NCBI GenBank assembly: GCA_964349135.1
Contig: CAYGFK010000005.1
Location: forward strand, 1-57,895
Length of the DNA stretch: 57,895 nucleotides
Origin: an uncultured Candidatus Saccharibacteria bacterium
Lineage (GTDB): Bacteria; Patescibacteriota; Minisyncoccia; Phycocordibacterales; DSPV01
Direction: 5' to 3'
The notes under the pieces were generated by a model. It saw only the letters and a list, made by a program, of their open reading frames with translations, did no database searches and was not told the origin of the DNA. Shown in pieces: positions 6,696 to 43,905 of the stretch (the first letter of the stretch is position 1; each line of letters starts with the position of its first letter). Made by a program: the position numbers and the translations under genes.

Positions 6696-6746
6696 CAATA
6701 ATTCACGAGGACAGCTGGTAGCTGTCTGAGTGAAGTATCATTGCGA

Positions 6747-6893
6747 CGCGATGAGGGACTCGAAAGACGGAGGCCGCGAAGCCCCGCCATGGGCGGGTCG
6801 GCCGAGTCGGGGTCGCGACCTTTCGCGTAGCGAAAGAGTTGTGACCGAGTCCCGTTTATTTTATAGCGCGATGAGGGACTCGAAAGACGGAGG
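6747..6893 (+). repeat. Structured cassette (type A) flanked by inverted and direct copies of the tRNA-Val 3' end, plus a second truncated copy
   Basis: 6747-6764 is the reverse complement of tRNA 6676-6693 (17/18). Cassette spans 6765-6846, and CGAGTCCC at 6846-6853 repeats the tRNA. A 27-bp direct repeat lies at 6747-6773 and 6867-6893. Confidence 0.85.
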
Positions 6894-6896
6894 TCG

Positions 6897-7820
6897 TTAT
6901 TTTGTATGAATATGGAGGTAAATATCCTCAAGCGCTTTGACCGCGTCGCCTGCGGCGATATTGTTCTGGTGGTAGAGTCCGTCGGTGCAGTCTCCTGCGG
7001 CCCAGATACCCGTTACCGAGGTCATTTGAGTCCGAGGGTCTACTTTAATGTGTCCCCAGGTGTCGAGCTTAAGAAGGTCTTTGGCAAAGCCGGTTGCCGG
7101 GATAAGTCCAATCTCAACGAAAATGCCTCCAATCGGCATCTCTTTCTCTTCTCCAGTTTTAGTATTTTTATAAACGACGCTTTTGACAAATTTATCTCCC
7201 TTGACCTCAGTTACTTCCGTGTTTCTTTCAATACGGACTTTCTCGTTTTTCGAAAGTTTTTCGACGGTAACTGGGTCTGCACGGAATGAGTCACCACGTA
7301 TGAATATCGTCACTGATTTACAGTACGCGGCAAGCTGAGCGGCCGACTCAAGAGCGGCATTGCCTCCGCCAATCACCAGCGCATCTTGCCCCGCAAAGAG
7401 CGGGCCATCACAGGACGCACAGTAGGTAAGTCCTTTGTGCTCAAATATATCAGCCCCTTTTGCAGGCAACCGACGTCGGCTGGAACCGGTCGCGATGAGA
7501 ACCGTTTTCGTGTCGTACGCTCCCTTAGGGGTCGTGACAAGAAATCCTTCACCTTTCTTTTCGATATGGTCTACCAGTTCTCCTTGGTGAATTGAGACAG
7601 CATCGCTCGCATACGCTTCCAAGTGTTTTTTTAGATTCGTGGCAAGCTCGGGGCCTGAGATGGAGACGGTGCCAATCCAGTTCTGGATATCTTCTGAGAC
7701 AATGGATTGCCCTCCGAAATCTTTGGTCAGAAAGAGCGTTTTCAGTTTCTTTCTGGCGGCATAAACACCTGCGGCAACGCCTGCCGGTCCTGCGCCGATG
7801 ATGGTGAGGTCATAATGCAT
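6897..7820 (-). CDS. trxB: Thioredoxin reductase-like FAD-dependent oxidoreductase
   Basis: IIGAGPAG, YCASCDG (CxxC), VIGGGNAA and AAGD motifs. Start placed at ATG 7820. Confidence 0.88.
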   Translation of the reverse strand: MHYDLTIIGAGPAGVAAGVYAARKKLKTLFLTKDFGGQSIVSEDIQNWIGTVSISGPELATNLKKHLEAYASDAVSIHQGELVDHIEKKGEGFLVTTPKGAYDTKTVLIATGSSRRRLPAKGADIFEHKGLTYCASCDGPLFAGQDALVIGGGNAALESAAQLAAYCKSVTIFIRGDSFRADPVTVEKLSKNEKVRIERNTEVTEVKGDKFVKSVVYKNTKTGEEKEMPIGGIFVEIGLIPATGFAKDLLKLDTWGHIKVDPRTQMTSVTGIWAAGDCTDGLYHQNNIAAGDAVKALEDIYLHIHTK

Positions 7821-7860
7821 AGGGTATAGAATATAGGGTTTACCGTGTCGGGGCAAGTAG

Positions 7861-7897
7861 AAAAAGAAAGCGCCGTCCGCTATAGCGGACGGCGTTT
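7861..7897 (-). terminator. Intrinsic terminator after ftsZ
   Basis: GCGCCGTCCGC-tata-GCGGACGGCGT hairpin with a T-tract on the - strand. Confidence 0.75.
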
Positions 7898-7909
7898 CGT
7901 GTAATACTT

Positions 7910-9097
7910 CTATTTCTTTCTCCTGAGAAATGCCGGAACCGCACCCCAATCATCATCATCAGAAATAGGAACCGCTTTCTCTTCCTTTTTTACATCAACA
8001 GCCGGCTCCTCTTTTTTCTTCACCTCATCTTTCTTCTCCTCCTTGTTGCTACTTCCCATGAGTGTATTAAAGATAGTTGACCCGCTCTTCTTCTCATCGG
8101 CCGGTTCGGTCGCGGTAGAGAAGAGTCGGCGATGCATCGCGCTTTCCGGGAACCCTGAAGCAATTACGGTGATTTTCACTTCGTTCTTCTTGAGGCGGTC
8201 GTCTTTGACCGTACCAAAGATAACTTTCGCATCACTGTCGATTGATTCGGTGATGACCTTCGCTGCATCCTGAATCTCGAACATGGTAAGGTCTTCGCCA
8301 CCGGCGATTGAGAAGAGGACCCCTTTCGCGCCCTGGATAGAAAGGTCGAGGAGCGGGGAGTTGATAGCCATGCGAGCCGCTTCTTCGGCGCGTTTCTCTC
8401 CTGAGGCGATACCAATACCCATGAGTGCCGACCCTGCGTTTTCAAGAATGGATTTGATGTCCGCAAAATCAGTGTTGATGATGCCGGGAATCGTAATGAG
8501 GTCAGAGATGCCTTCGACGGCTTGTTTGAGAATGTCATCGCACATTGCAAAGGCACTGCGGGCCGTGGTCTCCTTTGAGACGTTGGCGAGGAGGCGGTCG
8601 TTCGGGATGACGACGGTTGCATCAACCGCTTTCTTTAGTTCATCGAGACCTTGTTCTGCATAGCGCGAGCGCTGTTGCCCTTCGAATGAGAACGGTTTTG
8701 TGACAATGGCGACGGTGAGTGCTCCAAGTTCTCGCGAGATTTTTGCGATAATCGGTGATGAACCGGTACAGGTGCCACCTCCCATACCACCCGCAATGAA
8801 AACCATATCCGCACCCCTAATGGCTTCTTGAATTTCTTCCTTATTTTCTTCAACGGCCCGCTTGCCGAGTTCCGGATTCATGCCGGTTCCAAGTCCGTGT
8901 GTGAGATTTTTGCCGATATGAATTTTTTTGCGCGCCAAAGAGTTTTGGAGGTCTTGGGCATCGGTGTTTATGGCGATAAACTCAACGCCACGCACCTTCG
9001 AGGTAATCATGTGATTGACAGCGTTTTTTCCCGAACCGCCAACGCCAAGGACTTTAATCCTTGCGAACGCTTCAACTTCTGGTTTTACTTGTGGCAT
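7910..9097 (-). CDS. ftsZ: Cell division protein FtsZ
   Basis: IKVLGVGGSG, GGMGGGTCTG tubulin signature and C-terminal VPAFLRRK. Confidence 0.98.
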   Translation of the reverse strand: MPQVKPEVEAFARIKVLGVGGSGKNAVNHMITSKVRGVEFIAINTDAQDLQNSLARKKIHIGKNLTHGLGTGMNPELGKRAVEENKEEIQEAIRGADMVFIAGGMGGGTCTGSSPIIAKISRELGALTVAIVTKPFSFEGQQRSRYAEQGLDELKKAVDATVVIPNDRLLANVSKETTARSAFAMCDDILKQAVEGISDLITIPGIINTDFADIKSILENAGSALMGIGIASGEKRAEEAARMAINSPLLDLSIQGAKGVLFSIAGGEDLTMFEIQDAAKVITESIDSDAKVIFGTVKDDRLKKNEVKITVIASGFPESAMHRRLFSTATEPADEKKSGSTIFNTLMGSSNKEEKKDEVKKKEEPAVDVKKEEKAVPISDDDDWGAVPAFLRRKK

Positions 9098-9260
9098 AGA
9101 TTTCGTGCGCACGGTTGGCATGAGCCGAACCGATACGCGATTTATAGCTTACGCACTACATAATGGGCGTTTGTCCGATATGATACTGCAATCGGACAAA
9201 AAGAAAAGAGTTGACCCGTGAGAAGAGTGTGTCTTAGTATTTCAATCGTAAAGGACGTTC

Positions 9261-10445
9261 CTAGGGAAGGAGCTGGCGCAAGAGGTTTTTAAGGCCACCC
9301 CCGGCCTTTTTCGCGATTCCGACTCCGAGCGTTTGCTCCTCGCTGTCCTGAGAAAGTCCTATACGGCAGAGCCCGTATACGACCGACCATGAAGCGTCCT
9401 TTATGGGTTCACGCATGTTTCCACCCCAGTTCATTGATGCTGTTCGGGAGGGAAGAGAAAGTGATGCTTTCGCAAGTTCTTCGAGGACGGCAATACCCGA
9501 ACCACCGCCAGTGAGGATAATACCTGCCGGTAGGAGACGATTGCGACCAATCTTTTTTAGGTGGGCTTCGATGAGGTCGAGTATGTCAGATAATCGGGCT
9601 TCAATAATATCGTCTAGTTTCTTTCTTGGGAATGTTGAGCCGGTGATGGCGCCGACCTTGATGCGCTCCGCTTCCTCAATCGGCACCTTGAGCCCGAGCG
9701 CGATGTCGTTGGTTATGTCATTTGAGCCGATGGGGAAGGTCTCGAGAGATATCGGAATATTATTTTCAAAGACGACGATTGAGACTGTTTCGGCGCCGAT
9801 GTTGGCGAGCACGCTCCCCGCAATTTTCTGCTGTTTAGTAAGAGTCACTAAACTTGCGGCGAGTGGTGCGGCCACCGGCATCAATACTTCAACGCCGGCT
9901 TCTTCGACAGCCTGTTCAAGGTCGTAGAGATGGTTTTCAAGCGTCGTCACAAAAAGCACTTTGGCCTCGATTTTGTTCGCCTTCATTCCCGAAGGATTTG
10001 TACCGAGGACGACGTTCCCGTCAATGCGATATTGAATAGGGATAGTGTGAATGATGCGCCGATTTACTGATGTTGCCTGCGGAATGTTGCTTCGCGCGGC
10101 TGCCATCGCATTTTCCATGTCGCGTTCAGTCACTTCAGAGTCGGCGCGAGATATGGCAGTGGTTCCGGTTGCCGTAGTCGAAGAAAGGCCTATGCCTCCG
10201 ACGGAGAGGTAGGCCTGTCTGATGCGGACCCCAGACGCTTTTTCTGCCTGTGCCAAGGCCCCCTTGAGCGCCCTTTGCACGTCGGCTTGATTGATGATGT
10301 AGCCATGGCGGAGCCCTTTTGATTCAGCAAAACCTGACCCGATGATTTTTATCAAGGTTCGTTCAGGCGTTCGGTCTTCTTCAGCTACCATGACCTTTGC
10401 CTGATAGGTTCCAATATCTATCCCAACGGATATTTTTCGTGCCAT
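9261..10445 (-). CDS. ftsA: Cell division protein FtsA
   Basis: VGIDIGT, NIGAETV, IILTGGGS actin-like motifs. Directly upstream of ftsZ. Confidence 0.95.
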   Translation of the reverse strand: MARKISVGIDIGTYQAKVMVAEEDRTPERTLIKIIGSGFAESKGLRHGYIINQADVQRALKGALAQAEKASGVRIRQAYLSVGGIGLSSTTATGTTAISRADSEVTERDMENAMAAARSNIPQATSVNRRIIHTIPIQYRIDGNVVLGTNPSGMKANKIEAKVLFVTTLENHLYDLEQAVEEAGVEVLMPVAAPLAASLVTLTKQQKIAGSVLANIGAETVSIVVFENNIPISLETFPIGSNDITNDIALGLKVPIEEAERIKVGAITGSTFPRKKLDDIIEARLSDILDLIEAHLKKIGRNRLLPAGIILTGGGSGIAVLEELAKASLSLPSRTASMNWGGNMREPIKDASWSVVYGLCRIGLSQDSEEQTLGVGIAKKAGGGLKNLLRQLLP

Positions 10446-10465
10446 GCGAAATGTAAGAGAGAAAT

Positions 10466-10849
10466 TTATACGTGCAAAAATTTTGCACCGATGCGTTTCT
10501 CCTTACCCTCCATTGTACTACCGTGTGTGTGCCCCTTCAAATGGAGTAATCCGTGGATAAACAACATGCCGATGAATTTTGTGTAGGGCAGACCGTATGA
10601 CCGGTGTTGTGCCCTGGCGACGGCGGGGGCGATGATGATGGAACCCATTCCCTTTTTAAGGGTAAATGATAAGACGTTTGTCGGCTTATCTTTCTTTCGG
10701 TGCGTTCGGTTTAGTTGTCGAGACTCTTTCGGAGTGACGAATACGAGCTCAAGCAAAAAGCGCTTTCCGAGGATAGCGCTTTTTATAGCCTTGAAGGGTA
10801 CGCGAGGCGTGCGGGCTTTTGTGGCGTTGATGAGGATAAGGTCTCGCAC
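10466..10849 (-). CDS. ybeY: rRNA maturation RNase YbeY
   Basis: LNRTHRKKDKPTNVLSF and IHGLLHLKGHTH. Confidence 0.93.
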   Translation of the reverse strand: MRDLILINATKARTPRVPFKAIKSAILGKRFLLELVFVTPKESRQLNRTHRKKDKPTNVLSFTLKKGMGSIIIAPAVARAQHRSYGLPYTKFIGMLFIHGLLHLKGHTHGSTMEGKEKRIGAKFLHV

Positions 10850-10863
10850 AGGGGCTCGAGAGA

Positions 10864-11106
10864 TTATTTGCGTACCATCTTATCAGGCATTTTTCCTGAT
10901 TTGATGAGTTGCTCAACTTCTTTTCGTCGCGCAATACGAGTGAGGGTCCGCTTTTTCCTTGTCAGGTGAGACTTATTTCGTTCTTTGTATCGGAGTGAGC
11001 GCACTCGTTTAACGATGCCAGAACCCTGTAGCATCTTGTTGAAGCGTCGTAGTGTTGAAAGCGAGTTTTCGGTCCCCGTCCTCTCTACATTGATATTTAC
11101 TGCCAT
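10864..11106 (-). CDS. rpsU: 30S ribosomal protein bS21-like
   Basis: Basic 80-aa protein with E...S.LRRF.K...SG...VR..RY pattern. Confidence 0.75.
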   Translation of the reverse strand: MAVNINVERTGTENSLSTLRRFNKMLQGSGIVKRVRSLRYKERNKSHLTRKKRTLTRIARRKEVEQLIKSGKMPDKMVRK

Positions 11107-11147
11107 AGGCCAGGCATTGTAACACGGGACACCGTCCTTATGCAAGG

Positions 11148-12395
11148 TTAGGCCTTCAACGCTTTCAGGTGGGCGGGGAGGTCTTGAAGGGATATCGTTT
11201 CCTGTGACCGTGTGGACATATCTCTGACGATAGCGTTTCCTTCAAGTGCTTCTTTCTGTCCGATGATGACCACATAGGGCACCTTCATATTTTCCGCCGT
11301 AGCAATTTGGCTTGAGAGCTTGTCTTTGGCGAGCGATTGGTGCACCGGGATTTTGGCGTGCCGAAGCGCTTCGATAACGTCCAACGATTTCCGTTTGGCG
11401 TCGAATCCGATTTGAATGAAATAGACCTGAGGCTTTTTCATCTTGTGCGACGCTTTCTTGTCTCCGCGTGTTTCTTTGAAAATGAGAGTGACGCCGGCCG
11501 CAGAGAGGTCGCGTTTCGACTCCATTTTCTTGGCGAAGCTTGTCATTCGATAGCCGAGGCCGAGCGTCACTTCAGGTTCGTCTTCTTTTCCGATTGCGTT
11601 GAGTGTTTTGATGAGGAAGATGGTGTGCGAGCAAACGCGACGATTCCCAAGCAGGTGATTGTCTATTTTGTAAGGAACATTCATTGACTCAATGTACTCA
11701 AGCACTTCGGTAAAATGCGCTCGGCTGGTTTCAGTAAGGGAGGAAACCGATTTCGGCGCCTGGTTGGCGAGTTCGACACATTTTTCGTGGGTACACTCAA
11801 GGGGAGCAAAAAGGTCTTTCTTGAGTGCCGTTCGACAATGGGTTTGTAGCATGTCAGCATGTTTTCGATAAAACTGATTCACTTCGCGTGTGAAGTGGGT
11901 AAGGGTATCTTTGTCACCGACAGAATTGATATCTATATAAAGGTCTTTGTAACCCTTTTCGCGAAGTATTTCGAGAGATGCCTTGATGAGTTCCGCTTCC
12001 GCGATACTCTTGGAGGTGCCGAGGATGTCGAGGTGTATCTGTTTATAAGCATTTTTGGGAGTTTTTCGTTGTCCTACCCGAGGAATAGGCCCTTCATAAT
12101 AGAGCATGGTGGCTTGGGCAGGATTGAGGAGTTTGCGTTCCTCGCATGTTCGAATGAGCGCTACTTTTTCTTCAGCGCAGATTCTCATTTCTGGGCAGTC
12201 GGCTTCCCCATAATTTTTCTCATGAGTCTCGGACTCCGTAATTTGTTTTGCAATCTTTACGTCTTGATTCGTGACCACCGGCGCTTCGATAGGCATGAAA
12301 TTATAGTAATAGGCGATTTCTGCCGCGCGGTTGAGTTTTTTGAGTAGGAGATAAGGCGACCTTGCGTTTTTGTTTTTGCGAGCCGTTGTTTTCAT
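11148..12395 (-). CDS. Divergent histidyl-tRNA synthetase paralogue with degenerate catalytic motifs and an intact anticodon-binding domain
   Basis: HisRS architecture (F.PIEAP, YYEGP, INSVGD) and C-terminal QIATAENMKVPYVVIIGQKE...VRDM. The RQFxQ, RGLDYY, GGRYD and GLER motifs are not conserved. Confidence 0.75.
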   Translation of the reverse strand: MKTTARKNKNARSPYLLLKKLNRAAEIAYYYNFMPIEAPVVTNQDVKIAKQITESETHEKNYGEADCPEMRICAEEKVALIRTCEERKLLNPAQATMLYYEGPIPRVGQRKTPKNAYKQIHLDILGTSKSIAEAELIKASLEILREKGYKDLYIDINSVGDKDTLTHFTREVNQFYRKHADMLQTHCRTALKKDLFAPLECTHEKCVELANQAPKSVSSLTETSRAHFTEVLEYIESMNVPYKIDNHLLGNRRVCSHTIFLIKTLNAIGKEDEPEVTLGLGYRMTSFAKKMESKRDLSAAGVTLIFKETRGDKKASHKMKKPQVYFIQIGFDAKRKSLDVIEALRHAKIPVHQSLAKDKLSSQIATAENMKVPYVVIIGQKEALEGNAIVRDMSTRSQETISLQDLPAHLKALKA

Positions 12396-12396
12396 A

Positions 12397-13005
12397 TTAC
12401 TCAGTGAGGGTGGCATTGATGGGAACTAATTCCATACCGGGTCTCCAGTCGATGCGCGAGATGGGAAAAAGTCTCACGATAGGTTTCCCGACGATGTCAG
12501 TTCGCGGGAGAGGTCCCCATCGTCGCGAGTCGGAACTTGCTGAGCGATTATCTCCGAGCACGTAATATTCGTCAGGACCGAGCGTGACCGTTAAGAAGTC
12601 ACTACTTTGATTTTTGACGAATGGTTCATCGAGCATGAATGGTTCCGAGCCGTCTGTGGGTGTGATTCTGATGCGTGCGCCTTCGAATTGTACGGTCTCG
12701 CCCGGAAGCCCCACGATACGTTTAATAAAATATTTCTGTGGCTCAAGGGGGTAGTGCAGGATGATAGTGTCGTGACGCTTGGGTTCGCTGAAACGGTACG
12801 AGAGCTCATCAACGATAAGGTATTCTCCATTGTGGAATGTCGGAATCATTGAGTCGCCAGAAACGATGAATGGTTGAGCAATAAAGGTTCTGATGATGAA
12901 TACGAAGGCAACCGCAACTACGACGAATCGGACGGTTTCAAGGAGTTCGGACTTTTTTTTCGTAGCTATCGGCGCGGCGACCGGTTCTGGATTCTGTTCA
13001 GTCAT
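12397..13005 (-). CDS. lepB: Signal peptidase I
   Basis: PFIVSGDSMIPT, YFIKRIVGLPGE, GDNRSASSDSR and an N-terminal TM. Confidence 0.95.
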   Translation of the reverse strand: MTEQNPEPVAAPIATKKKSELLETVRFVVVAVAFVFIIRTFIAQPFIVSGDSMIPTFHNGEYLIVDELSYRFSEPKRHDTIILHYPLEPQKYFIKRIVGLPGETVQFEGARIRITPTDGSEPFMLDEPFVKNQSSDFLTVTLGPDEYYVLGDNRSASSDSRRWGPLPRTDIVGKPIVRLFPISRIDWRPGMELVPINATLTE

Positions 13006-13105
13006 ATTTCACCCATTGTAATATACGTCTCGTTTGACTAAAAGTTTCTTTACGTGGCTTTGTGTTATGTTGCACGATGGAGTCCGTGATACTATTATTC
13101 TCGCT

Positions 13106-13696
13106 ATGAGTTACGTCATCGTTGGGTTGGGAAATCCCGGAGAGGAATACGAACACACCCGGCATAATACCGGACGCATCCTTGTCGAGGATTTTGCTCG
13201 CAGAATGAAATGTGATGCGTTTGAGCACGACAAGAAAGCGAACGCAGATACGGTCACGGGGAAGGTGAAGCGAGAAGCATTCACACTCGTGCTTCCCGAT
13301 ACGTTCATGAATAAATCGGGGAATGCGGTGGCACGGTACGTGAAATCGAAGAAGGCGGCTGAACAGCTTGTCGTTATTCATGACGACCTTGATTTGCCAC
13401 TTGGCCGAATCAAACTATCGTTCAATCGTGGCTCTGGCGGGCATCGCGGTGTCGAGTCGATTGTGCGTGCACTAAAGACAGAAGCGTTCGTGCGTCTACG
13501 CGTAGGTATCTCAAAAGATGCCGGAAAAGGGAGAGTAAAGAAACCTGTTGGCGAAGATGCGGTAGGGGATTTTATTCTCGGCGCATTCAAACCGGCTGAG
13601 GAGAAGGAATTTAAGAAAGTATCGAAACTCGTCTCCGAGGTGCTTGAGTTTATTGTCGAGGAAGGCCATCAGGCGGCCATGCAGGAGTTTAATTGA
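13106..13696 (+). CDS. pth: Peptidyl-tRNA hydrolase
   Basis: IVGLGNPG.EY..TRHN.G, FMNKSG, HDDLD and GGHRG. Confidence 0.96.
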   Translation: MSYVIVGLGNPGEEYEHTRHNTGRILVEDFARRMKCDAFEHDKKANADTVTGKVKREAFTLVLPDTFMNKSGNAVARYVKSKKAAEQLVVIHDDLDLPLGRIKLSFNRGSGGHRGVESIVRALKTEAFVRLRVGISKDAGKGRVKKPVGEDAVGDFILGAFKPAEEKEFKKVSKLVSEVLEFIVEEGHQAAMQEFN

Positions 13697-13725
13697 GTTT
13701 TCTTGTCTATATAAATAGCGCGTGT

Positions 13726-13761
13726 AAAAAAACCGTTCGCTGTGTGGCGAACGGTTTTTTT
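13726..13761. terminator. Bidirectional intrinsic terminator between pth and the S1 gene
   Basis: AAAAAAACCGTTCGC-tgtgtg-GCGAACGGTTTTTTT. Confidence 0.85.
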
Positions 13762-22059: not shown

Positions 22060-22061
22060 GT

Positions 22062-27058: not shown

Positions 27059-27166
27059 GCTTGTATACTCTACCACTTTTCTTTTTATTATAAAGAAGAA
27101 TCCTCGGGCGTTAGCAGAGGGATGCGGTCGATTCCCTGCGGAAGCGATACCATCGCTTCCTACCGA

Positions 27167-27289
27167 GCTTGAAGGCACGGGCGGGAATCTCGGCTACCGC
27201 CGCGGGTGGTTCTCGATTTCACTCCGTTCAATAACGAGAACCCTTTCGATTCCCGCACGCACGCAAGCTGTTGCGTGCTCTGTGCTTGA
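27167..27289 (-). repeat. Structured cassette (type B) with inverted and direct copies of the tRNA-Cys 3' end
   Basis: 23-bp exact repeat at 27167-27189 and 27284-27306. A 12-bp inverted copy lies at 27245-27256 and the cassette spans about 27190-27246. Confidence 0.85.
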
Positions 27290-27361
27290 AGGCACGGGCG
27301 GGAATCGAACCCGCGCATGGCGGTTTTGCAGACCGCAGCGTTACCACTTCGCCACCGTGCC
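27290..27361 (-). tRNA. tRNA-Cys(GCA)
   Basis: GCGGT-CTGCAAA-ACCGC anticodon arm and U73 discriminator. Confidence 0.95.
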
Positions 27362-35769: not shown

Positions 35770-35782
35770 GATTTATTCTCCC

Positions 35783-35871: not shown

Positions 35872-35955
35872 GCGCAGGTGGCGGAGTGGTCAATCGCAAC
35901 AGACTGTAAATCTGTCGGCCAATGGCCTACGAAGGTTCGAATCCTTCCCTGCGCA
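35872..35955 (+). tRNA. tRNA-Tyr(GTA)
   Basis: ACAGA-CTGTAAA-TCTGT anticodon arm and a long variable arm. Confidence 0.95.
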
Positions 35956-36158
35956 ATAAAACAAAGGAGGCGGGATGCGAAAGCGTCCCGCCCCTCTTGT
36001 TTTAACGCGGGGAAGGATTCGAAAGACGGAGGCGCGAAGCCCCGCTGAAAGCGGGTTGCCGAGTCGGGGTCGCGACCGCCGAAGGCGAGTCGTGACCGAA
36101 TCTATAGGTTCCCTGCGCAATAAAACAAAGGAGGCGGGATGCGAAAGCGTCCCGCCCC
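35945..36158 (+). repeat. 50-bp direct repeat (tRNA-Tyr 3' end + hairpin) enclosing an inverted tRNA copy and a type A cassette
   Basis: 35945-35994 is identical to 36109-36158. 36006-36023 is the reverse complement of 35936-35953 (17/18). Cassette spans 36024-36097. Confidence 0.9.
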
Positions 36159-36187
36159 CTTTGTTTAGGGGTATTTTTAGGCCTGTG

Positions 36188-38031: not shown

Positions 38032-38085
38032 ATTGCGCTTCAGTGCGTTTTAGGGTATAGTCTCAGAACACGTAATTTAAACGAT

Positions 38086-38244
38086 ATGTCACAGGATAGA
38101 CTCATAAAACTGGCGTGCTCAAAGTGCAAGCGAGTCGGCTACTGGTCAAGTAAGAATAAGAGGAAAGTAGAGCGCAAAATCGAAGGCGCGAAGTATTGTA
38201 AGTGGTGCAAGAAACGCACGCCACATAAAGAGACGAAGAAGTAA
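38086..38244 (+). CDS. rpmG: 50S ribosomal protein L33 (Zn-ribbon form), 52 aa
   Basis: MSQDRLIKLACSKCK...KYCKWCKKRTPHKETKK. Lies upstream of tRNA-Trp. Confidence 0.93.
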   Translation: MSQDRLIKLACSKCKRVGYWSSKNKRKVERKIEGAKYCKWCKKRTPHKETKK

Positions 38245-38252
38245 TTTTTTCT

Positions 38253-38396
38253 GAAATAATTCTCAAGAACACGGATAAACGGCGCCTGCGCGCCGTTTTC
38301 CTACGCTCGGTTCGCGACGGTCAAGAGCCCTCGCATTGCTCGGGTCATTGACAGGCCTTGCTCGCTCGCCTCCGCGATGTTCTTGAGAATTATTTC
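38253..38396. repeat. 144-bp element bounded by a perfect 19-bp inverted repeat, with internal hairpins
   Basis: GAAATAATTCTCAAGAACA at 38253-38271 and its reverse complement at 38378-38396. Confidence 0.8.
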
Positions 38397-38456
38397 GGGG
38401 CATGGGGTAGGAGCAAGCTGGTAGATTGCTTTTTGTTGATGTAGGATAAAGTTCGA

Positions 38457-38528
38457 GGGCCTGTAGTTTCAATGGTAAAACATCGGTCTCCAAAACCGAG
38501 GTTCCCAGTTCGAGTCTGGGCGGGCCCG
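38457..38528 (+). tRNA. tRNA-Trp(CCA)
   Basis: TCGGT-CTCCAAA-ACCGA anticodon arm. Confidence 0.93.
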
Positions 38529-38631
38529 TAGATAATAACTATGACTCTGCTATTTGAAATAGAGAAAATTAAAGGAGAAGTCTTACAGATTGTTGTTTTT
38601 GACGTTATCTTAGACTTAAAGCACTAAAAAT

Positions 38632-39792
38632 GTGGAACCGCTTGCATCACAACTACGGCCGAAGACGCTTAAGGAGTTTATTGGCCAGGAACATCTGGTC
38701 GGTAAGGGTAAACCACTTCGCACGGCGATAGAGAAGAAGCACCTATTTTCATTTATTTTATGGGGACCGCCCGGAGTGGGGAAGACGACACTTGCCAAGA
38801 TTTACGCACAGGCGCTTGAGGCCAAGCTCTATGAACTGTCTGCCGTTTCAGCGGGTAAGGACGATATCAAACGGATTATCGAGGAGTCAACACTTCTCGA
38901 TGACCGTCCTCGAGTTTTGTTTCTCGACGAGATACACCGATTCAACAAAGCACAGCAGGATTTTCTCCTGCCGTATGTCGAGTCGGGTAAACTCACGCTC
39001 ATTGGAGCGACAACTGAAAATCCATCATTCGAGGTCATTTCCGCACTCCTCTCGCGTTGTCGCGTCTTTGTTTTAAAATCCCTCTCAGAGAGTGAAATTG
39101 TTTCTATTGCGAAGCGAAGTAAGGTAAAGCTCGATGCAAAAGCGCTTGCATGGCTGGCCGAGGTTGCAAACGGAGACGCGCGTACCGCATTGACGATTCT
39201 TGAGAATACACTTCGGTTGTATAAGAAGGTGGACGTAAAGACGCTCACGGAGACCCTGCAACACGCATTTCTTCGGTTTGATAAAAAAGGTGATGAGCAC
39301 TATGACACCGTCTCGGCGTATATTAAAAGTATGCGAGCGGGAGACGCTGATGCGGCGATGTACTATCTTGCTCGGATGCTTGAAGGAGGAGAAGACCCGA
39401 AATTCATTGCACGTCGTATGGTCATTTTTGCATCGGAAGACGTGGGGCTCGGACAGTCCACGGCGCTTGTTGTGGCAAACGAAGTCTTTCAGGCGGTAGA
39501 TTCTATCGGTATGCCGGAGGCCGCAATTACTCTCGCACACGGCACCGCATATCTTTCGCTCGCGAAGAAGGATAGGAGTTCGTATGATGCCCTTCGTTCC
39601 GCCCAAGAGGATGTACGCAAGTTTGGTAATATCCCGATACCTCTCAAAATCAGGAACGCTCCTACAAAACTCATGAAAGAGCTCGGATATGGCACAGGGT
39701 ACGAGAAGTATGATACGGAGAGCTATCTCCCCGATAAGCTCAAAGGAAGACGATATTTTAAGAAACAGGTGGAAAACAAAAAGCGCAAATAA
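38632..39792 (+). CDS. rarA: Replication-associated recombination protein A (RarA/MgsA)
   Basis: LRPKTL.EFIGQ, WGPPGVGKTT, LDEIHRFNK.QQD, ATTENPSF and IKSMR. Confidence 0.95.
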   Translation: MEPLASQLRPKTLKEFIGQEHLVGKGKPLRTAIEKKHLFSFILWGPPGVGKTTLAKIYAQALEAKLYELSAVSAGKDDIKRIIEESTLLDDRPRVLFLDEIHRFNKAQQDFLLPYVESGKLTLIGATTENPSFEVISALLSRCRVFVLKSLSESEIVSIAKRSKVKLDAKALAWLAEVANGDARTALTILENTLRLYKKVDVKTLTETLQHAFLRFDKKGDEHYDTVSAYIKSMRAGDADAAMYYLARMLEGGEDPKFIARRMVIFASEDVGLGQSTALVVANEVFQAVDSIGMPEAAITLAHGTAYLSLAKKDRSSYDALRSAQEDVRKFGNIPIPLKIRNAPTKLMKELGYGTGYEKYDTESYLPDKLKGRRYFKKQVENKKRK

Positions 39793-39823
39793 CCAAGCGA
39801 GGCGTATAATCTAAGTATACGCT

Positions 39824-41395
39824 ATGGAAACAGCGCTCCTTGTTCATAATATTGTTTTTGTCGCTGATGCGGTTATTTTGATTGCGCTCATCACGATTAT
39901 TCTTCGTGCACCTAAGACGACCGCTAGTGTCACGCTCGCACTCGGGCTTTCAGCCGTTGTCGTGTTTTGTGTCTCGCACGTTATTGGCGTAAGTCTCAAC
40001 GACCCTGAACTGTCTCGTCTCGTTCTCATGGCGAATGTCAGTACCATCCTCATTACCGCGTTCGTTAATCACAGTGTCTTCGCTATTCTTGGAAAAGAGA
40101 AAACGCACCAATTCGGCATTGTGGCAGTGTACATACTTTCTGTTTTTCTTCTTGCTATGTATACATTTTTTCCAGATACCTTCCTCGCACTATCCGTGCC
40201 GAAACTGTATTTCCCTAATTATTATGTGGCAGGGTCTCTGCACTGGGTTATGCGTCTTGCCTTCAACCTTATTGTTCCGCTTTACTTCATCTTCCACCTC
40301 TACCGGACGTACCGAAAGGCCGACTATTCCCTGAAGAACAGACTTCGCTACTTATGGGTTGCGTTTTTTCTGGGCTACAGTGTCGGAGGTCTCCCTATTC
40401 TTTTAATTTACGATATCCCGTTTAATCCGGTGTGGGGCGCGTTGTTTGTGCCGTTCTTCGCCATTCCGTTTACGTATACCGTTGTGCGTTACGAGCTGTT
40501 GGATATAAAACTTGTCGCGAGGCGAGCTCTTCTCTACACAGGCCTTGTTCTTGGACTCGGATGGATATTGAGTTCGCTTATCTACATTCAGAACAGTCTC
40601 GTTGTACTGTATCCGGACTTTCCGCAATGGATACTGCCTTTTGTGTCGGCACTTGTGACCGTTGTCGTCGGTATTCTTGTTTGGCGCGCGATACGTCAGA
40701 CAGATATCTTGAAATATGAATTCGTGACAGTCGTGAGCCATAAGTTCCGCACGCCCCTGACCTACATCAAATGGTCCCTTGCAAATTTGCGTAAGAAGGG
40801 TGGTGGCGAGTCCGCCCAGAAAGACCTTGATACTATTGAGCATGCTTCCGAGACGCTCAATCGTCTTACTGACGTTCTTGCCGGCGTGGGGGACACCGAA
40901 GAGCTCTCGGTGTATTACACCGAAATTCTTTCACTCGAGCCACTTTTGCGCTCTATCGTCAATACGGTGAAAAGGGATGCGGAATCGAAAGGTGTTTCAC
41001 TGCGTGTTCATATCGAGCACCACGTACCCTCGGTGCGCGTGAATAGTAAACGGATTGAGTCCGTGTTCGAGATAGTGATTGCTAACGCTATTACCTACAC
41101 TCCTCGAGGCGGTGCCGTGCACATCTCCCTTACGGGAGGAGGTCATGGAGAGAGTGCGATTGTTACCGTAGAGGATAATGGCATAGGCATTACCAAACAG
41201 GAACTACAGGGCATCTTCCAAAAGTTCTTTAGGAGTGGTCGTGCGCGGGAAGTGTACACTGAAGGATTTGGTATCGGTCTCTATCTCTCTAAGGTTATTA
41301 TTGAGCGTCATGGTGGTAAGATACGCGTGCATTCCGGAGGGGAAGGAAAGGGAACGGTCGTCGTTATTACGCTACCGGTGGCGGTGAAGTACTAA
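39824..41395 (+). CDS. Membrane sensor histidine kinase (about 9 TM + HisKA + HATPase)
   Basis: H-box SHKFRTPL, N-box NAITYT, G1 DNGIGI, F-box and G2 GFGIGL. Confidence 0.9.
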   Translation: METALLVHNIVFVADAVILIALITIILRAPKTTASVTLALGLSAVVVFCVSHVIGVSLNDPELSRLVLMANVSTILITAFVNHSVFAILGKEKTHQFGIVAVYILSVFLLAMYTFFPDTFLALSVPKLYFPNYYVAGSLHWVMRLAFNLIVPLYFIFHLYRTYRKADYSLKNRLRYLWVAFFLGYSVGGLPILLIYDIPFNPVWGALFVPFFAIPFTYTVVRYELLDIKLVARRALLYTGLVLGLGWILSSLIYIQNSLVVLYPDFPQWILPFVSALVTVVVGILVWRAIRQTDILKYEFVTVVSHKFRTPLTYIKWSLANLRKKGGGESAQKDLDTIEHASETLNRLTDVLAGVGDTEELSVYYTEILSLEPLLRSIVNTVKRDAESKGVSLRVHIEHHVPSVRVNSKRIESVFEIVIANAITYTPRGGAVHISLTGGGHGESAIVTVEDNGIGITKQELQGIFQKFFRSGRAREVYTEGFGIGLYLSKVIIERHGGKIRVHSGGEGKGTVVVITLPVAVKY

Positions 41396-42302
41396 GCCAC
41401 TGTCGAACGAGTTTTTTTGCGTCCGTAGGGTCGTCAATCCAACGGATTGATTTGTCTCGATTAAACCAGGTTAGTTGTCGTTTGGCATATCGATAGATTT
41501 CACGTTCAAGACGTTCTTCAAATTCCTTTCTCGAAAGAGTTCCTTGGAGGTAGTACGAAAGACAGCGATACTCAAGCCCGAGTACCTCCATTCGTTTCCA
41601 TGAGAGTCCGTGCTCATGGAGACGGCGCGCCTCGCTTAGCATTCCTCGCTTGAGGCGCGATTTGAGTCGCGCGTGAATTCGTTTCCTGAGTGTTTCCATT
41701 GAAAATTGTATGCCGATTTTTATCGGGTTATAGCACGAGGTTTTGGAGAGCCTCGGGACTTTTCCGAATACGTTTGTAATCTCTAGTGCTCGGATGAGTC
41801 GTCGTTTGTTGAAAGCGTCTATGGTCGACGCTCGTTCAAGGTCCTCTTTCTGGAGTCTCTCTAAGAGTTCTCGAGCTGTTTTACGCTCGAGCGTAGCGCG
41901 TAATTTTTTATTTGGGGGCACTTCAGGAAGGACAATGCCGTTTATAAGCGCATCAATATAAAAACCGGTTCCTCCGCATATAATAGGAAGTTTCCCACGG
42001 CGCTCAATCTCTTTAATCGCGCGTTTCGCCAGTGCTATAAAACGAGTTACTGAAAATTGTCTGCGTGGGTCAGCAACATCAAGGAGATGATGTCGGACAC
42101 CTTTCATCTCGTGTTTCGAGACCTTTCCTGTGCCGATGGTGAGCCCGCGATAGACTTGACGCGAATCGGCTGAAATTACCTCTCCGTTGAATGCGCGAGC
42201 AAGCTCAACAGCCAAGTCGCTTTTGCCTGATGCGGTTGGGCCAAGAACCACGACAACCTGAGGCCGTGATTCTTGGCTTCGCGCTACTCTCACTACGCTC
42301 AT
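41367..42302 (-). CDS. miaA: tRNA dimethylallyltransferase
   Basis: LGPTASGKS, ISADSRQVY, GGTGFY and YAKRQLTWF. Confidence 0.96.
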   Translation of the reverse strand: MSVVRVARSQESRPQVVVVLGPTASGKSDLAVELARAFNGEVISADSRQVYRGLTIGTGKVSKHEMKGVRHHLLDVADPRRQFSVTRFIALAKRAIKEIERRGKLPIICGGTGFYIDALINGIVLPEVPPNKKLRATLERKTARELLERLQKEDLERASTIDAFNKRRLIRALEITNVFGKVPRLSKTSCYNPIKIGIQFSMETLRKRIHARLKSRLKRGMLSEARRLHEHGLSWKRMEVLGLEYRCLSYYLQGTLSRKEFEERLEREIYRYAKRQLTWFNRDKSIRWIDDPTDAKKLVRQWLSTSPPPVA

Positions 42303-42435
42303 ATGCCGGGAGAGATATCGGCTACCACGTAGCCAGGTGTTTTTCGACCTCGCCGACTCGGTAACGAAAAACCTTTCGATTCTCTCACGCCGTGAAGCAG
42401 TTCACGGCTTCCCGTCAATTTCGCTTTGCTCATAA
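42303..42435 (-). repeat. Structured cassette (type B) with inverted and direct copies of the tRNA-Leu(CAA) 3' end
   Basis: 13-bp repeat at 42303-42315 and 42435-42447. Inverted TTCGATTCTCTC at 42375-42386. Cassette spans about 42318-42376. Confidence 0.8.
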
Positions 42436-42517
42436 TGCCGGGAGAGAGAATCGAACTCTCATGGATTGCTCCACACGATTTTGAGTCGTGCGCGTCTACC
42501 AATTCCGCCATCCCGGC
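42436..42517 (-). tRNA. tRNA-Leu(CAA)
   Basis: CACGA-CTCAAAA-TCGTG anticodon arm and a long variable arm. Confidence 0.94.
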
Positions 42518-42600
42518 CCTGTTCACAACTAAATTATCACCAAAACGGGTTTTGCTCAAACATCCTATGATGATAAGATATCGTTATAACTATTGAGACC

Positions 42601-43599
42601 ATGTCGCATTTCTACGGTGATGCCATATTTTGGCTTGAAGTAGGTAAGATAAAACCAAATCCATATCAGCCACGTCAGGAGTTTGACGAGGCGCGTCTTC
42701 GTGATTTAGCCGAATCTATACGCACGTATGGCGTACTTCAACCTCTCGTGGTGACTCGCAAAGAAGTGCAACGTCCGGACGGGAGTTTATTTGTGGAATA
42801 TGAGCTTGTTTCCGGAGAACGGCGCTTGCGCGCATCGAAACTTGCCGGTATTGCGCAGGTCCCGGCTATCATTCGCAATGATACCGATGATTCAAAGATT
42901 AAACTTGAGCTTGCTATCATCGAAAACCTTCAGCGAGAAGACCTTAATCCTGTGGACCGTGCGAAAGCATTTCAACGCCTTGCTGACGAGTTTTCTTACA
43001 AACATACGGAGATTGCACAGAAGATAGGGAAGAGCCGAGAGTATGTTTCAAATACCCTCCGTATCCTCGCACTACCTGAAGAAATTCTAATTGCTCTTGC
43101 GGCAAAACGTATTTCTGAAGGACACACCCGCCCCATTTTGATGTTGTCGGACCGGCCTGAAGAACAAATGACTCTCTTTAAGGAGGTGATTATGAGACGG
43201 ATGACCGTGCGCGAGGCCGAAGGTATTGCACGTCGCATTGCTTTCGATAAAGTTCGTAAGAAGGACCGAGCCGTGGACCCTGAGATTGTTGAGATGGAGG
43301 AGAAGCTCTCAGAGACCCTTGGAACCCGCGTGCAGATTGAGCGTAAGGAAAAGGGAGGCAAAATACACATTGATTTCTTTTCGCCCGAAGACCTTGCGCA
43401 GATAATTACGATGATAGAAGAGCGTCGTCATGTGCTTGCGCAGAGTCAGGGAGTAATTCCTCCGGAGCGTTCCGCGGAAGAAATCGCGGGTGAGGTTGCT
43501 CAAACTATTGCACAGGAACAGGAGGCGCCGATTGACGATTCGACCGAGCAAGACAATGAAGGGGACAATCTTTACTCCATTCGGGATTTCTCAGTTTAA
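42601..43599 (+). CDS. parB: ParB/Spo0J family partition protein
   Basis: PNPYQPR..F, GVLQPLVV, SGERRLRA, IENLQREDL and an HTH. No parA adjacent. Confidence 0.92.
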   Translation: MSHFYGDAIFWLEVGKIKPNPYQPRQEFDEARLRDLAESIRTYGVLQPLVVTRKEVQRPDGSLFVEYELVSGERRLRASKLAGIAQVPAIIRNDTDDSKIKLELAIIENLQREDLNPVDRAKAFQRLADEFSYKHTEIAQKIGKSREYVSNTLRILALPEEILIALAAKRISEGHTRPILMLSDRPEEQMTLFKEVIMRRMTVREAEGIARRIAFDKVRKKDRAVDPEIVEMEEKLSETLGTRVQIERKEKGGKIHIDFFSPEDLAQIITMIEERRHVLAQSQGVIPPERSAEEIAGEVAQTIAQEQEAPIDDSTEQDNEGDNLYSIRDFSV

Positions 43600-43601
43600 A
43601 T

Positions 43602-43630
43602 AAAAACGGCCCGTAAAGCGGGCCGTTTTT
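43602..43630. terminator. Bidirectional terminator between parB and topA
   Basis: AAAAACGGCCCG-taaag-CGGGCCGTTTTT. Confidence 0.85.
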
Positions 43631-43643
43631 CTATTCCTTCTTT

Positions 43644-43905
43644 TTTCGTCCCGGCTGATGCATATCGCACGCTTTGTTTGAACAGCGTTCGGGAATGGTT
43701 TTCGGTCACACCTCTCACGTTCGCCGTCGCGAACGTTCGGGTGCGACCCCGGCTCGCGGTTTTTGCTTCTGCAAAAACATCGCTCCGCCTTACGAAAACC
43801 TATGCGTACACCGTGAAGACAGTGTACTACTTCTCCACTTTCTTTCGTCCCGGCTGATGCATGTCGCACGCTTTGTTTGAACAGCGTTCGGGAATGGTTT
43901 TCGTA
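43644..43905 (-). repeat. 61-bp duplication of the topA 3' end enclosing a type A-like cassette and a 10-bp inverted target copy
   Basis: 43644-43704 vs 43843-43903 (60/61 identical). TACGAAAACC at 43791-43800 is the reverse complement of 43896-43905. Cassette spans 43705-43792. Confidence 0.9.

Follow-up and report, generated by a model that had tools for sequence, protein, structure and literature searches.

Small non-coding cassettes of ~55-130 nt with a conserved fold adjoin about half of the tRNA genes of this bacterium, a tiny-genome organism of the candidate-phyla-radiation type, and also a topoisomerase gene. The closing arms of each cassette are copied from the gene in which it lies. 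There is good support for their having invaded the T-loop of tRNA genes and of tmRNA genes; rare copies lie at other sites, in protein genes. The cassette is best read as an undescribed, proliferating, structure-based element that was probably copied in by fold-back or template-switch replication, and it seems to have propagated with no transposase, integrase or reverse transcriptase of a known kind. Neither Rfam nor the literature yielded a family or paper matching such target-derived arms, so that the preliminary description, which knew no name for the element, stands on this point.

Architecture of the cassette loci

All five loci of the window (the whole 57,895-nucleotide stretch of DNA analysed) have the order gene, X, spacer, Xbar, core, X', where X is the 3' part of the gene from the T-loop on, Xbar its inverted copy and X' a second direct copy; as a formula, W/X-S-Xbar-core/X', with W/X the intact gene and S its terminator. 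This shared layout had been noticed from the letters of the window, and the locus sequences confirm all five places with exact coordinates, given here for the tRNA loci:

6678-6853, +: tRNA-Val locus overall (type A)
6678..6696, +: X, 3' part of tRNA-Val(GAC), C56 to end
6697..6746, +: spacer, apex of the long X:Xbar hairpin
6709-6727, +: spacer hairpin GGACAGCT-ggt-AGCTGTCT
6747..6764, +: Xbar, inverted tRNA positions 54-71, one mismatch, 3' end ...TCGAA
6765..6845, +: type A core, three-way junction with P2 and P3
6846..6853, +: X', direct copy CGAGTCCC, only 8 nt retained
6866..6893, +: second Xbar and first 11 nt of a type A core, then unrelated DNA
35938-36166, +: tRNA-Tyr locus overall (type A)
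35938..36002, +: X and the intrinsic terminator of tRNA-Tyr
36006..36023, +: Xbar CGCGGGGAAGGATTCGAA
36024..36096, +: type A core, 80% identity to the Val core
36097..36166, +: X' and second terminator copy
27307-27167, -: tRNA-Cys locus overall (type B)
27284..27307, -: X and 6 nt trailer
27259..27278, -: branch hairpin hp GCACGCAA-cagc-TTGCGTGC, then GT
27245..27256, -: proximal Xbar block GCGGGAATCGAA, complement of positions 54-65
27190..27244, -: type B core
27167..27189, -: X', 23 nt identical to X and trailer
27118..27160, -: second unit, hairpin, GC and AGGGAATCG, with 6 nt instead of a core
42453-42297, -: tRNA-Leu(CAA) locus overall (type B)
42428..42453, -: X and trailer
42410..42417, -: distal Xbar block TGACGGGA, 7/8 complementary to positions 66-73
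42389..42408, -: branch hairpin hp
42375..42386, -: proximal Xbar block GAGAGAATCGAA
42321..42374, -: type B core
42297..42320, -: X', small indels

Stacked units occur, the newer adjoining the gene: the second Xbar unit at Val (6866..6893) is a truncated older unit, and the second unit at Cys (27118..27160) is older than the first. At Tyr the duplication covers 70 nt, with a 7-for-2 nt replacement after CGAATC.

Genome-wide, ~19 of 39 tRNA genes have, within ~200 nt downstream, an inverted copy of 10 nt or more of the gene's 3' end, a frequency far above chance, and the local tRNA is the unique best match to Xbar at 14 of 16 loci, bearing out the earlier proposal that the inverted flank tracks the local target. 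The cassette-free genome G010 has no such copy at 29 of the 30 tRNA genes checked and a weak match (10 nt, 90%, 174 nt away) at the remaining one. Xbar is complementary to X over a stretch that starts at about the gene end and reaches back to T54, and it is often 17-24 nt long; the layout first described for the arm ends holds, but not the proposed Xbar end at TCG/CGA, since its 3' limit (T54, T55) lies two bases further upstream than the start of X' (C56). Types B-E and some type A copies have Xbar in two blocks, a GC hairpin and 'GT' being interposed near the T-stem/acceptor boundary; at 6-7 of 12 loci the distal block, which lies upstream of this branch hairpin, is significant. Either the terminator of the gene or a GCRAAGC mini-hairpin serves as spacer, and folding of the segment from T54 to the end of Xbar always gives a single closed hairpin or a Y, the terminator lying at the apex (dG -36 to -66 kcal/mol).

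These features support well that X' is the displaced old 3' end of the target gene, that the inserted unit is a long hairpin (X:Xbar, terminator at the tip) joined to the core, and that the insert corresponds topologically to a circle or dumbbell (X-S-Xbar-core) that has been opened at core/X and set between T55 and C56. The target gene is still intact because the insert, 100-250 nt in length, supplies a fresh 3' end; direct duplications of the target range from 8 to 97 nt.

The order W-X-S-Xbar-core-X' is exactly what circle insertion would give, which raises the alternative, unlikely in our estimation, that a small circular (single- or double-stranded) DNA or dumbbell integrates, its X:Xbar stem mimicking the duplex target, while a host Xer-like or unrecognised site-specific recombinase exchanges strands between core/X and T55/C56, on the model of folded phage CTX attP or integron attC sites. 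CTX attP(+) and attC likewise have two inverted arms around a 50-140 nt variable middle, a stem imitating a duplex site, strand-specific structure recognition and small-circle insertion topology, but their arms are fixed (dif-like, or R''/R') and read by XerCD or IntI, whereas each new target provides the sequence of the cassette arms, and the search for a matching recombinase gave none. Integration of a circle would suit the strand-specific structure with its conserved G·U, the conserved junction and loop bases, which resemble a protein-binding site, and the spacers adjoining X that are unlike the native terminator beside X' (at Arg-TCT, the Val-TAC locus on contig C8 and Glu), as if X and S were element-borne; a recombinase, however, leaves the rewriting of X and Xbar for twenty tRNAs, topA and a glycosyltransferase gene unaccounted for.

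Integrases classically leave a direct repeat of the tRNA 3' end and stacked insertions at tRNA and tmRNA genes, and this genome encodes one large serine recombinase; the loci could accordingly be read as scars left by integrase-borne islands of the ordinary kind (attL/attR remnants, cis-mobilisable elements), a reading to which we give next to no chance. Integrative elements targeting tRNA and tmRNA genes, and their miniature derivatives (CIMEs), also share entry in or near the T-loop, an element-borne 3' end restoring the gene, the old 3' end as direct repeat and tandem stacking, but the cassette is a 100-250 nt insert of conserved fold without an integrase, and one core family serves many different genes. 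Island scars are already contradicted by the locus-specific arms, the inverted target copy, which no att-site model predicts, and the lack of any integrase correlation.

Core fold and agreement of the arms with their targets

Homologous cores dispersed through the genome were confirmed, but not their division into only two types: the family numbers ~30 copies, whose cores fall into five or more types (A-E). The type A core is a three-way junction (96% paired, 26/27 pairs compensatory) with a G·U conserved in 31/34 copies, conserved core loops CAGCAG and CGACGG and, across the order, conserved tetraloops and an internal loop with tandem G·A. Identity between cores at different tRNAs reaches 80-86% while the arms are specific to each locus, which points to spread from target to target. 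At locus L004 Xbar matches the tRNA at 18/18 positions while X' has decayed, and in each of three genomes the tRNA-Glu elements agree with that genome's own tRNA; to judge from such comparisons, the arms appear to be rewritten or held in step with the target. Because of the G·U positions of tRNA-Val and tRNA-Gln, Xbar can be assigned to the 3' strand, of which it is the exact complement, rather than to a copy of the tRNA 5' strand.

The very strong covariation, conserved G·U, internal loop and tetraloops would also be in keeping with a host-useful RNA module, a stable small RNA or cis-acting element that mimics, with its closing helix, the acceptor/T-arm helix of the tRNA next to it, for handling by tRNA-processing or tRNA-binding proteins or for pairing with the pre-tRNA 3' half (a 'switch'), its copies arising by ordinary local duplication. 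The branch hairpin is placed where the D and anticodon arms leave the tRNA acceptor/T stack, the association with the same tRNAs persists across families, and Xbar stays complementary to the functional tRNA even beside a decayed X'. We nevertheless consider such a module quite unlikely: a terminator usually lies between tRNA and cassette, the architecture recurs at topA and, antisense, at a glycosyltransferase gene, copies without a tRNA exist, and Xbar is not a copy of the tRNA 5' strand. The intrinsic terminator ahead of the inverted copy, the protein-gene sites and the antisense copy likewise weaken the RNA switch that the preliminary description had offered as its alternative.

Distribution, non-tRNA targets and candidate enzymes

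Copy number of type A ranges from 0 to 16 in the order, 35 of whose 41 genomes contain it, and the distribution across the phylum is patchy (17 of 300 genomes). Both type A and type B are missing from six near-complete genomes, among them G010, of the same genus as G012 (9 copies); the cassette is therefore dispensable, which argues against the host-useful module. Type A is found at the same tRNAs in different families (Val-TAC, Glu-CTC, Ser-GGA, Gly-TCC), the Val spacer being ~80% conserved between families; orphan copies also exist. Within-genome core identity does not exceed 86% except in one duplicate pair, and on this measure the family appears to give no sign of very recent activity. Three further assemblies of the same strain, made independently, have an identical sequence, and their agreement excludes the assembly artefact that had been considered; no movement was observed among them.

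The topA locus has the following features:

43903-43631, -: topA locus overall
43827..43903, -: X, last 77 nt of the functional reading frame, stop codon included
43807..43826, -: hairpin TACACTG-tcttca-CGGTGTA
43791..43800, -: Xbar GGTTTTCGTA, complement of TA/CGAAAACC, covering target positions -2 and -1
43705..43790, -: type A core
43631..43704, -: X', displaced topA 3' end with its own stop codon, then the native terminator

The duplication of the topA 3' end is 66 nt long and 98% identical, and the hairpin at 43807..43826 recurs in two relatives with a conserved loop and a co-varying stem. The two extra bases of Xbar are TA in this genome (G000; target GGTA/CGA) and TG in two relatives (target GGCA/CGA); compared with G002 and G004, the G000 Xbar differs exactly at -2 and +8, where the G000 target differs. 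Inside one genus the site is filled (G000, G002, G004), empty (G001 and G003, the empty orthologous sites that had been sought) or differently filled (G005). The functional topA end of G005 resembles the element-borne end of other genomes, and its X' the native end of G003, as integration of a circle would allow.

At the 5' end of the glycosyltransferase gene the cassette is antisense to the gene, with arms CGCGCCACCCC and a 44-nt perfect duplication containing GTTCGAT. Transfer RNAs with a TTCAAAT loop have CAAATCC arms, tRNA-Met has GTGCAAT arms and tRNA-Ile(TAT) carries its cassette at position 48/49; together with the glycosyltransferase arms, these make the suggested insertion at CGA too narrow. 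Genes for tmRNA are also targeted and protein-gene sites are rare. The topA and glycosyltransferase copies indicate DNA-level targeting rather than a tRNA-specific role, and non-tRNA targets, the variable topA site, the 0-16 copies and stacked units uphold the non-autonomous, proliferating behaviour first proposed. MITEs, REP/BIME, Correia and Rickettsia palindromic elements are similarly small, multi-copy, hairpin-forming, non-coding and mostly intergenic, but have fixed terminal repeats, short fixed-length target duplications and a partner transposase (DDE or RAYT), whereas cassette arms are target-derived and the duplications vary from 8 to 97 nt.

The co-distributed transposase, recombinase or reverse transcriptase envisaged earlier was not found among RVT_1, Y1, serine recombinase and IS110. 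Copy number did not co-vary with RVT_1, Y1_Tnp or Resolvase among the genomes compared, G019 having 21 copies and none of the three, and IS110 is absent from 16/16 genomes. One Xer-like tyrosine recombinase (~300-390 aa) is present in every genome, cassette-bearing or not, with a second match in G004 and G010; its equal presence in cassette-free genomes, like the missing co-occurrence of serine recombinases, IS110 and Y1 enzymes, counts against integration of a circle.

Xbar spans the junction from -2 to about +18, as a guide would, and the core is a conserved three-way junction, features that would fit a ribozyme-like cassette RNA using Xbar against target RNA or DNA and fixed by reverse transcription. 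Such retro-insertion is very improbable, as there is no RVT_1 match in G000, G002, G019, G025 or G026, all copy-rich; the cassette matched none of the known ribozyme families, the glycosyltransferase copy is antisense to the mRNA, and a fixed guide cannot account for the rewriting of arms. The missing reverse transcriptase largely refutes this route and leaves the RNA-mediated option of the preliminary description unsupported.

Proposed route of spread

Template switching is a plausible and, to us, the preferred route. As a whole, the best explanation combines a structured cassette family with spread by host-run DNA copy choice, a mechanism that we infer; we put it at a little under an even chance. 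A single copy-choice event, driven by host replication and repair machinery, would begin with synthesis restarting in the T-loop, re-copying X and the terminator; fold-back at the palindromic terminator would let the displaced strand be copied backwards into Xbar, with run-off at T54; a switch onto an existing cassette, made through the conserved palindromic microhomology TTCGA, would copy the core, and synthesis would return to the target at C56. The three target copies would afterwards stay alike through conversion, through quasi-palindrome correction or through selection for pairing. SbcD is absent from 16/16 genomes and found in 13/14 control genomes; lacking the SbcCD hairpin nuclease, the lineage can tolerate palindromes this long. 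Since the core loops are conserved, some factor or activity would recognise the folded sense strand.

Copy choice would require 3 or 4 ordered template switches, and leaves the branch hairpin hp and the non-native spacers next to X (Arg-TCT, Val-TAC on C8, Glu) unexplained. We know of no direct precedent for it as a recurrent, programmed process. In quasi-palindrome template switches and fold-back DUP-INV-DUP structures, the inverted copy directly adjoins a hairpin that was already present, a direct duplication lies next to it and the junctions fall at microhomology (PMC7954356, PMC10766186). The cassettes share all three features, but those products are sporadic mutations, whereas the cassette is the same ordered product recurring hundreds of times across the order and carries a conserved structured core.

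Mobile GC clusters and double-hairpin elements of fungal mitochondria are protein-less, GC-rich hairpins that proliferate in small genomes, and gene 3'-end replacement is known beside free-standing homing endonucleases, the invaded gene working via its duplicated or replaced end. Coding palindromes occur in the mitochondria of Nematomorpha (PMC6649704). The cassettes resemble these systems in hairpin proliferation and in a gene kept working. Neither target-derived closing arms nor tRNA T-loop specificity has, to our knowledge, been described for any of them.

Given the persistence at the same tRNAs across families and the conserved G·U and loops, a selected RNA or protein-binding function accounts for the cassettes no less well than a purely selfish element that needs no enzyme.

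Layout of the cassettes and origin of their arms

The window holds eight tRNA genes (called with ARAGORN and Rfam), and cassettes stand at five loci: Val, Tyr, Cys (minus strand), Leu-CAA (minus) and topA (minus). Read on the sense strand of the target, all five have the common order proposed in the preliminary description: the gene as far as T55, its 3' part from C56 (X), a spacer (S), an inverted copy ending ...TCG(AA) (Xbar), a GC-rich core, and a second copy of the 3' part (X'). Wherever a locus is complete, X' repeats X in direct orientation, with duplicated lengths of 8, 23, 24, 44, 66, 70 and 97 nt. Xbar has its endpoint at T54 and X' begins at C56, so that Xbar runs two bases further; this offset is masked at tRNAs, where the 'AA' of 'AAAG' supplies the complement of TT, and is exposed at topA, where Xbar ends TCG-TA at a GGTA|CGA target in this genome and TCG-TG at a GGCA|CGA target in two congeners. 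The initial proposal that insertion takes place at a CGA needs widening, as other arms are seen at further loci and CGA is not obligatory.

Xbar is a long arm that often falls into two blocks. The distal one (complement of positions 66-74) comes first, followed by one or two bases, a 7-9 bp GC branch hairpin, 'GT', and a proximal block (complement of 54-65). At six loci the distal block matches at 9/9, 8/9, 8/9, 7/9, 7/9 and 6/9 positions (shuffle p <= 0.03). S is the gene's own terminator, in the form of a GCRAAGC mini-hairpin or of an intrinsic terminator. Taken from T54 through the whole of Xbar, the sequence folds as one closed structure at 15 of the 15 loci folded (dG -36 to -66 kcal/mol), with X:Xbar as outer stem, the terminator at the apex and the branch hairpin at the side, and the inserted unit X-S-Xbar-core is a long hairpin plus the core. 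Two other readings of Xbar were rejected. The Xbar halves and their hairpin are not a degenerate tRNA 5' half, since at the G·U pairs of tRNAs Xbar shows Watson-Crick complementarity to the 3' strand, and since it complements the T-loop as well; nor is Xbar a primer-binding site, since it matches the gene past position 73 and not the added CCA. As a separate observation, a motif around the GCGAAGC-type mini-hairpin, GAGC(A/G)AAGCGA, occurs 10 times in the whole genome versus 0.7 expected (in the window at 42421-42431, minus), placed at the tip of tRNA trailers and also as a loop cap within cores.

Across the 711-kb genome (28 contigs, of which the window is C5), about 19 of 39 tRNA genes have 10 nt or more of their own 3' end repeated downstream in inverted orientation. 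Searches with nhmmer and covariance models recovered about 30 cassettes; the two core types first distinguished, A and B, both exist, within a set of at least five.

Core types and their locations in the genome
Type A: Val, Tyr, topA, Glu (two), Ser-GGA, Asp (two), Ile-TAT, Gly-TCC, Val-TAC, one orphan
Type B: Cys, Leu-CAA, Arg-GCG, Lys-TTT, Gln, one intron-bearing tRNA, one partial copy
Type C: four copies
Type D: five to six copies, tmRNA and a glycosyltransferase gene among them
Type E: one copy

The claim that the inverted flank tracks its local target is borne out: at 14 of 16 loci Xbar matches the local tRNA better than any other, the remaining two being ties, and the arms differ between all loci, each matching its local gene. 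Homology of the cores, likewise noted beforehand, reaches 80-86% identity at different tRNAs with arms that are locus-specific. Stacks of two units occur at Asp, Glu, Arg-TCT, Cys, Ser-GCT, Gln, Val and an intron-bearing tRNA, where a gene-adjacent unit is followed by the full old 3' end, the old terminator and the old Xbar. Exact-protein look-up found four contigs of other assemblies, and the window sequence recurs unchanged where they were read, over the topA cassette in two and over the Leu-CAA cassette in one, with no strain-level difference at either; the arrangement is therefore not an assembly artefact, a concern raised at the outset.

The five tRNA genes with an encoded CCA (Arg-CCT, Phe, Ala-GGC, Thr-GGT, Thr-CGT) are all without a cassette; in another genome of the order (G012) a tmRNA with encoded CCA does bear one. 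Outside the window, at C2:68570-68900, an intact tRNA-Ile(TAT) is nested within a second, broken copy, in its anticodon loop, and this outer copy has a type A core at 48/49 with arms of only 5-6 nt; here the whole gene was supplied, not merely its 3' end. Three stubs consist of Xbar and the first 10-11 nt of a type A core. Right ends of the Val and Gln stubs were looked for and none was found; the stub at C1:49450 has a matching right end 1.2 kb off with two ORFs in between. At this locus (C1:49440-50720, outside the window, behind an intron-bearing tRNA) all that is left of type A is the first 10 nt and the last 5-8 nt, and the ORFs putatively encode a signal-peptide beta-rich protein and a VirB2-like pilin, making it one possible candidate for a cargo-carrying version of the element.

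Protein-gene targets, turnover and concerted change

Two targets are protein-coding. In topA the last 77 nt are duplicated, 66 nt of them aligning at 98% identity, and the native terminator lies on the displaced copy. In the glycosyltransferase gene the first 44 nt are perfectly duplicated, and a type D cassette lies antisense to the gene. The latter segment contains GTTCGAT and the topA site is GTACGAA, so both sites resemble a T-loop. We also observed that the glycosyltransferase cassette (C17:5100-5600, outside the window) displaces the native GTG start and GGAG ribosome-binding site, leaving the working copy with an ATG start preceded by 15 nt of unrelated sequence; expression of the gene may be shut off, or may come from inside the cassette.

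The comparison with empty orthologous sites called for in the preliminary description reveals turnover at topA within a single genus: the site carries an orthologous type A cassette in G000 (the genome of the window), G002 and G004, and is empty in G001 and G003, where the stop codon is followed by the terminator. In G005 a different hairpin insert of ~190 nt stands at nearly the same place, with the 3' end again duplicated (locus L034, 960-450, minus). Its displaced copy is like the native end of G003, and its working copy like the end that lies on the element side in G000 and G004.

X, Xbar and X', the three copies of the target, evolve together. At topA of this genome Xbar fits both X and X', which share 98% identity here and ~80% in the relatives, and Xbar differs from that of the relatives at exactly -2 and +8, where the target itself differs. 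At locus L004, Xbar matches the working tRNA-Ser at 18/18 positions and X' is much changed; tRNA-Glu cassettes from three genomes each fit their own, different tRNA-Glu. Compared over the loci, Xbar is usually a closer match to X than to X', and small insertions near the start of X' are frequent. In a rival reading the cassette is a folded single-strand circle, like CTX or attC, integrated by a host or other candidate recombinase. The integrated order is that of a circle of X-S-Xbar-core opened between core and X and set between T55 and C56, and this topology fits, as do the cases in which X travels with the element, but the rewriting of the arms is unexplained, and we consider such a circle unlikely.

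Core fold and distribution

The type A core is a three-way junction, formed by P1 (the target-derived arms, which close the structured core), P2 (with a GGA/GA internal loop) and P3 (GGUCG...UGACC). In an alignment of 34 copies from 30 other genomes, 96.4% of cells are paired and 26 of 27 pairs exhibit compensatory change; none of the shuffles or register shifts came near the observed pairing and covariation. One G·U is retained in 31 of the 34 copies, which assigns the fold to the sense strand. Most apical loops read CAGCAG and CGACGG, unlike the usual stable RNA tetraloops. Nothing in Rfam resembles the cores, so that the match to a described family, named beforehand as grounds for refutation, did not appear: at gathering scores the sole matches in the window are tRNAs, and at permissive E-values the cassettes give only noise (<= 17 bits; ribozymes, riboswitches, tRNA-like, Y RNA, retron msr, HEARO etc.). 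Known ribozyme models did not match the cassettes, and inspection by eye also rejected hammerhead, hairpin, twister and k-turn: the junction strands misfit, and P2 has an internal loop with tandem G·A but a bulge of only one base.

Type A is present in 35 of 41 genomes of the order, in 0-16 copies, and type B in 20 of 41; six near-complete genomes have neither. Elsewhere type A is patchy (17 of 300 further genomes sampled evenly across the phylum), and more than 300 copies were found in total. A called tRNA lies next to 21 of the 29 type A loci from genomes other than this one; of the remaining eight, the four that were read are two at tmRNA and two orphans, one more is the G002 topA copy and three stand at contig ends. 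In the cassette-free genome G010 an inverted 3'-end copy is absent at 29 of the 30 tRNA genes checked (the exception, L077, being a weak 10-nt, 90% match), from which it follows that Xbar comes with the cassette; this rules out the alternative that Xbar pre-exists behind tRNA genes and that cores insert into it. The tmRNA of G010 has a coreless mirror copy behind its terminator, the only such case in that genome, which may be a remnant or a pure fold-back product. Separately, the Val spacer (window 6697-6746 versus 1445-1495 of locus L005) retains ~80% identity between two families, with GAC here and TAC there, and is more conserved than topA DNA within the genus, which suggests selection on it or horizontal transfer of a whole tRNA-plus-cassette module.

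The conservation would fit a host RNA module mimicking the tRNA acceptor/T helix, akin to the RNA switch first suggested. The protein-gene and antisense copies, the terminators and the dispensability of the cassettes do not fit it, and we judge such a module decidedly unlikely. Readings at the DNA and RNA levels are nonetheless compatible, as a selfish element may carry a core that needs to fold for copying.

Mode of spread and relation to known elements

The preliminary description had suggested looking for a co-distributed HUH transposase, recombinase or reverse transcriptase. Comparison of ten copy-rich and six copy-free genomes revealed none among RVT_1, Y1_Tnp, Resolvase, IS110 and tyrosine recombinase. 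The first three have no relation to cassette presence in these 16 genomes: G019, with 21 copies, is without all of them; RVT_1 has no match in the genome of the window and four other copy-rich genomes; Y1_Tnp is absent in copy-rich G002, G012 and G019 and present in copy-free G009, G016 and G023; and Resolvase is absent from G012, G017, G019, G025 and G026. IS110 transposase (PF01548, DEDD) is absent from all 16. Every genome, with cassettes or not, has one Xer-like tyrosine recombinase (Phage_integrase match), and a second match occurs in G004 and G010; over the 16 genomes, the presence of cassettes goes with no additional tyrosine recombinase. SbcD, a hairpin nuclease subunit, is also absent from 16 of 16 genomes of the order, and its model matches 13 of 14 control genomes. 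This absence fits the persistence of 85-110-nt near-palindromes, and the lineage may be without a hairpin and palindrome nuclease altogether.

The evidence points to proliferation at the DNA level. Our best explanation, held at a little below even confidence, is that a replicative copy-choice event spreads the cassette. Synthesis would restart at a T-loop break or nick, copying X and the terminator anew; fold-back at the terminator palindrome would let the displaced strand be copied in reverse, writing Xbar and running off at T54; the core would be copied from an existing cassette via the conserved palindromic TTCGA microhomology; and synthesis would return to the target at C56. Copy-choice accounts for six features: duplications of variable length, a spacer in mirror image, the offset of two bases, the preference for T-loops, the spread from tRNA to tRNA and the lack of an enzyme. 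Not covered by it are the branch hairpin, the loci with a non-native spacer beside X, and the conserved core loops.

The cassettes do not match what defines MITEs, REP/RAYT elements, derivatives of IS200/605, integrase islands, retroelements or IS110; a full-text literature search found no description of such an element. MITEs have fixed terminal inverted repeats in all copies and short target-site duplications of constant length, whereas the arms here vary by locus and the duplications span 8-97 nt. REP/RAYT and IS200/IS605-derived palindromic elements depend on a Y1 HUH transposase, and IS110/IS1111 bridge-RNA elements on a DEDD transposase, neither of which accompanies the cassettes. Retrons, group II introns and DGRs have a reverse transcriptase; retro-insertion, in which the cassette would arrive by way of RNA as the RNA-mediated route first proposed implies, is very improbable given that no such enzyme was found in this genome or four other copy-rich ones. 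As in integrase-borne tRNA islands and CIMEs, a direct repeat of the tRNA 3' end flanks the insert, but a site-specific tyrosine or serine integrase matching the att repeats is lacking, and that the cassettes are integrase scars is exceedingly improbable. With integron attC and CTX att sites they share imperfect inverted arms, a variable middle and one-strand folding; the arms are target-derived instead of following a fixed consensus (R''/R' GTTRRRY or dif-like), and for the dedicated IntI or XerCD reaction no additional tyrosine recombinase is seen alongside the cassettes. The cassette works most like three things, fold-back and template-switch rearrangements among them; it is like folded single-stranded att sites in having a stem that mimics its target, and like tRNA-targeting integrative elements in stacking and in the duplicated 3' end that repairs the gene.

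We raise as a possibility, on balance doubtful, a new class of element with no gene and no fixed ends, comprising a conserved folded core and accessory hairpins, with both closing arms and a spare gene end written by host replication from each target. Such an element would home on the universally conserved palindromic tRNA T-loop as a self-retargeting, nucleic-acid-only parasite or symbiont of tRNA genes, enabled by SbcCD loss in reduced genomes. The cassettes explain tRNA 3'-end duplications that are widespread in Patescibacteria genomes and easily mistaken for integrase scars or assembly errors, and they offer replication-repair research hundreds of natural fold-back or template-switch products. 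At least one of their cores, type A, is a new, strongly co-varying structured motif that merits an Rfam entry. Were they host RNA instead, they would constitute a new class of RNA linked to tRNAs, in a phylum where hardly any non-coding RNAs have been characterised. If the arms are truly target-written, the cassettes would represent a kind of DNA mobility that none of the schemes based on transposase, integrase, reverse transcriptase or guide RNA covers, in which a structured nucleic acid alone colonises essential genes without killing them.
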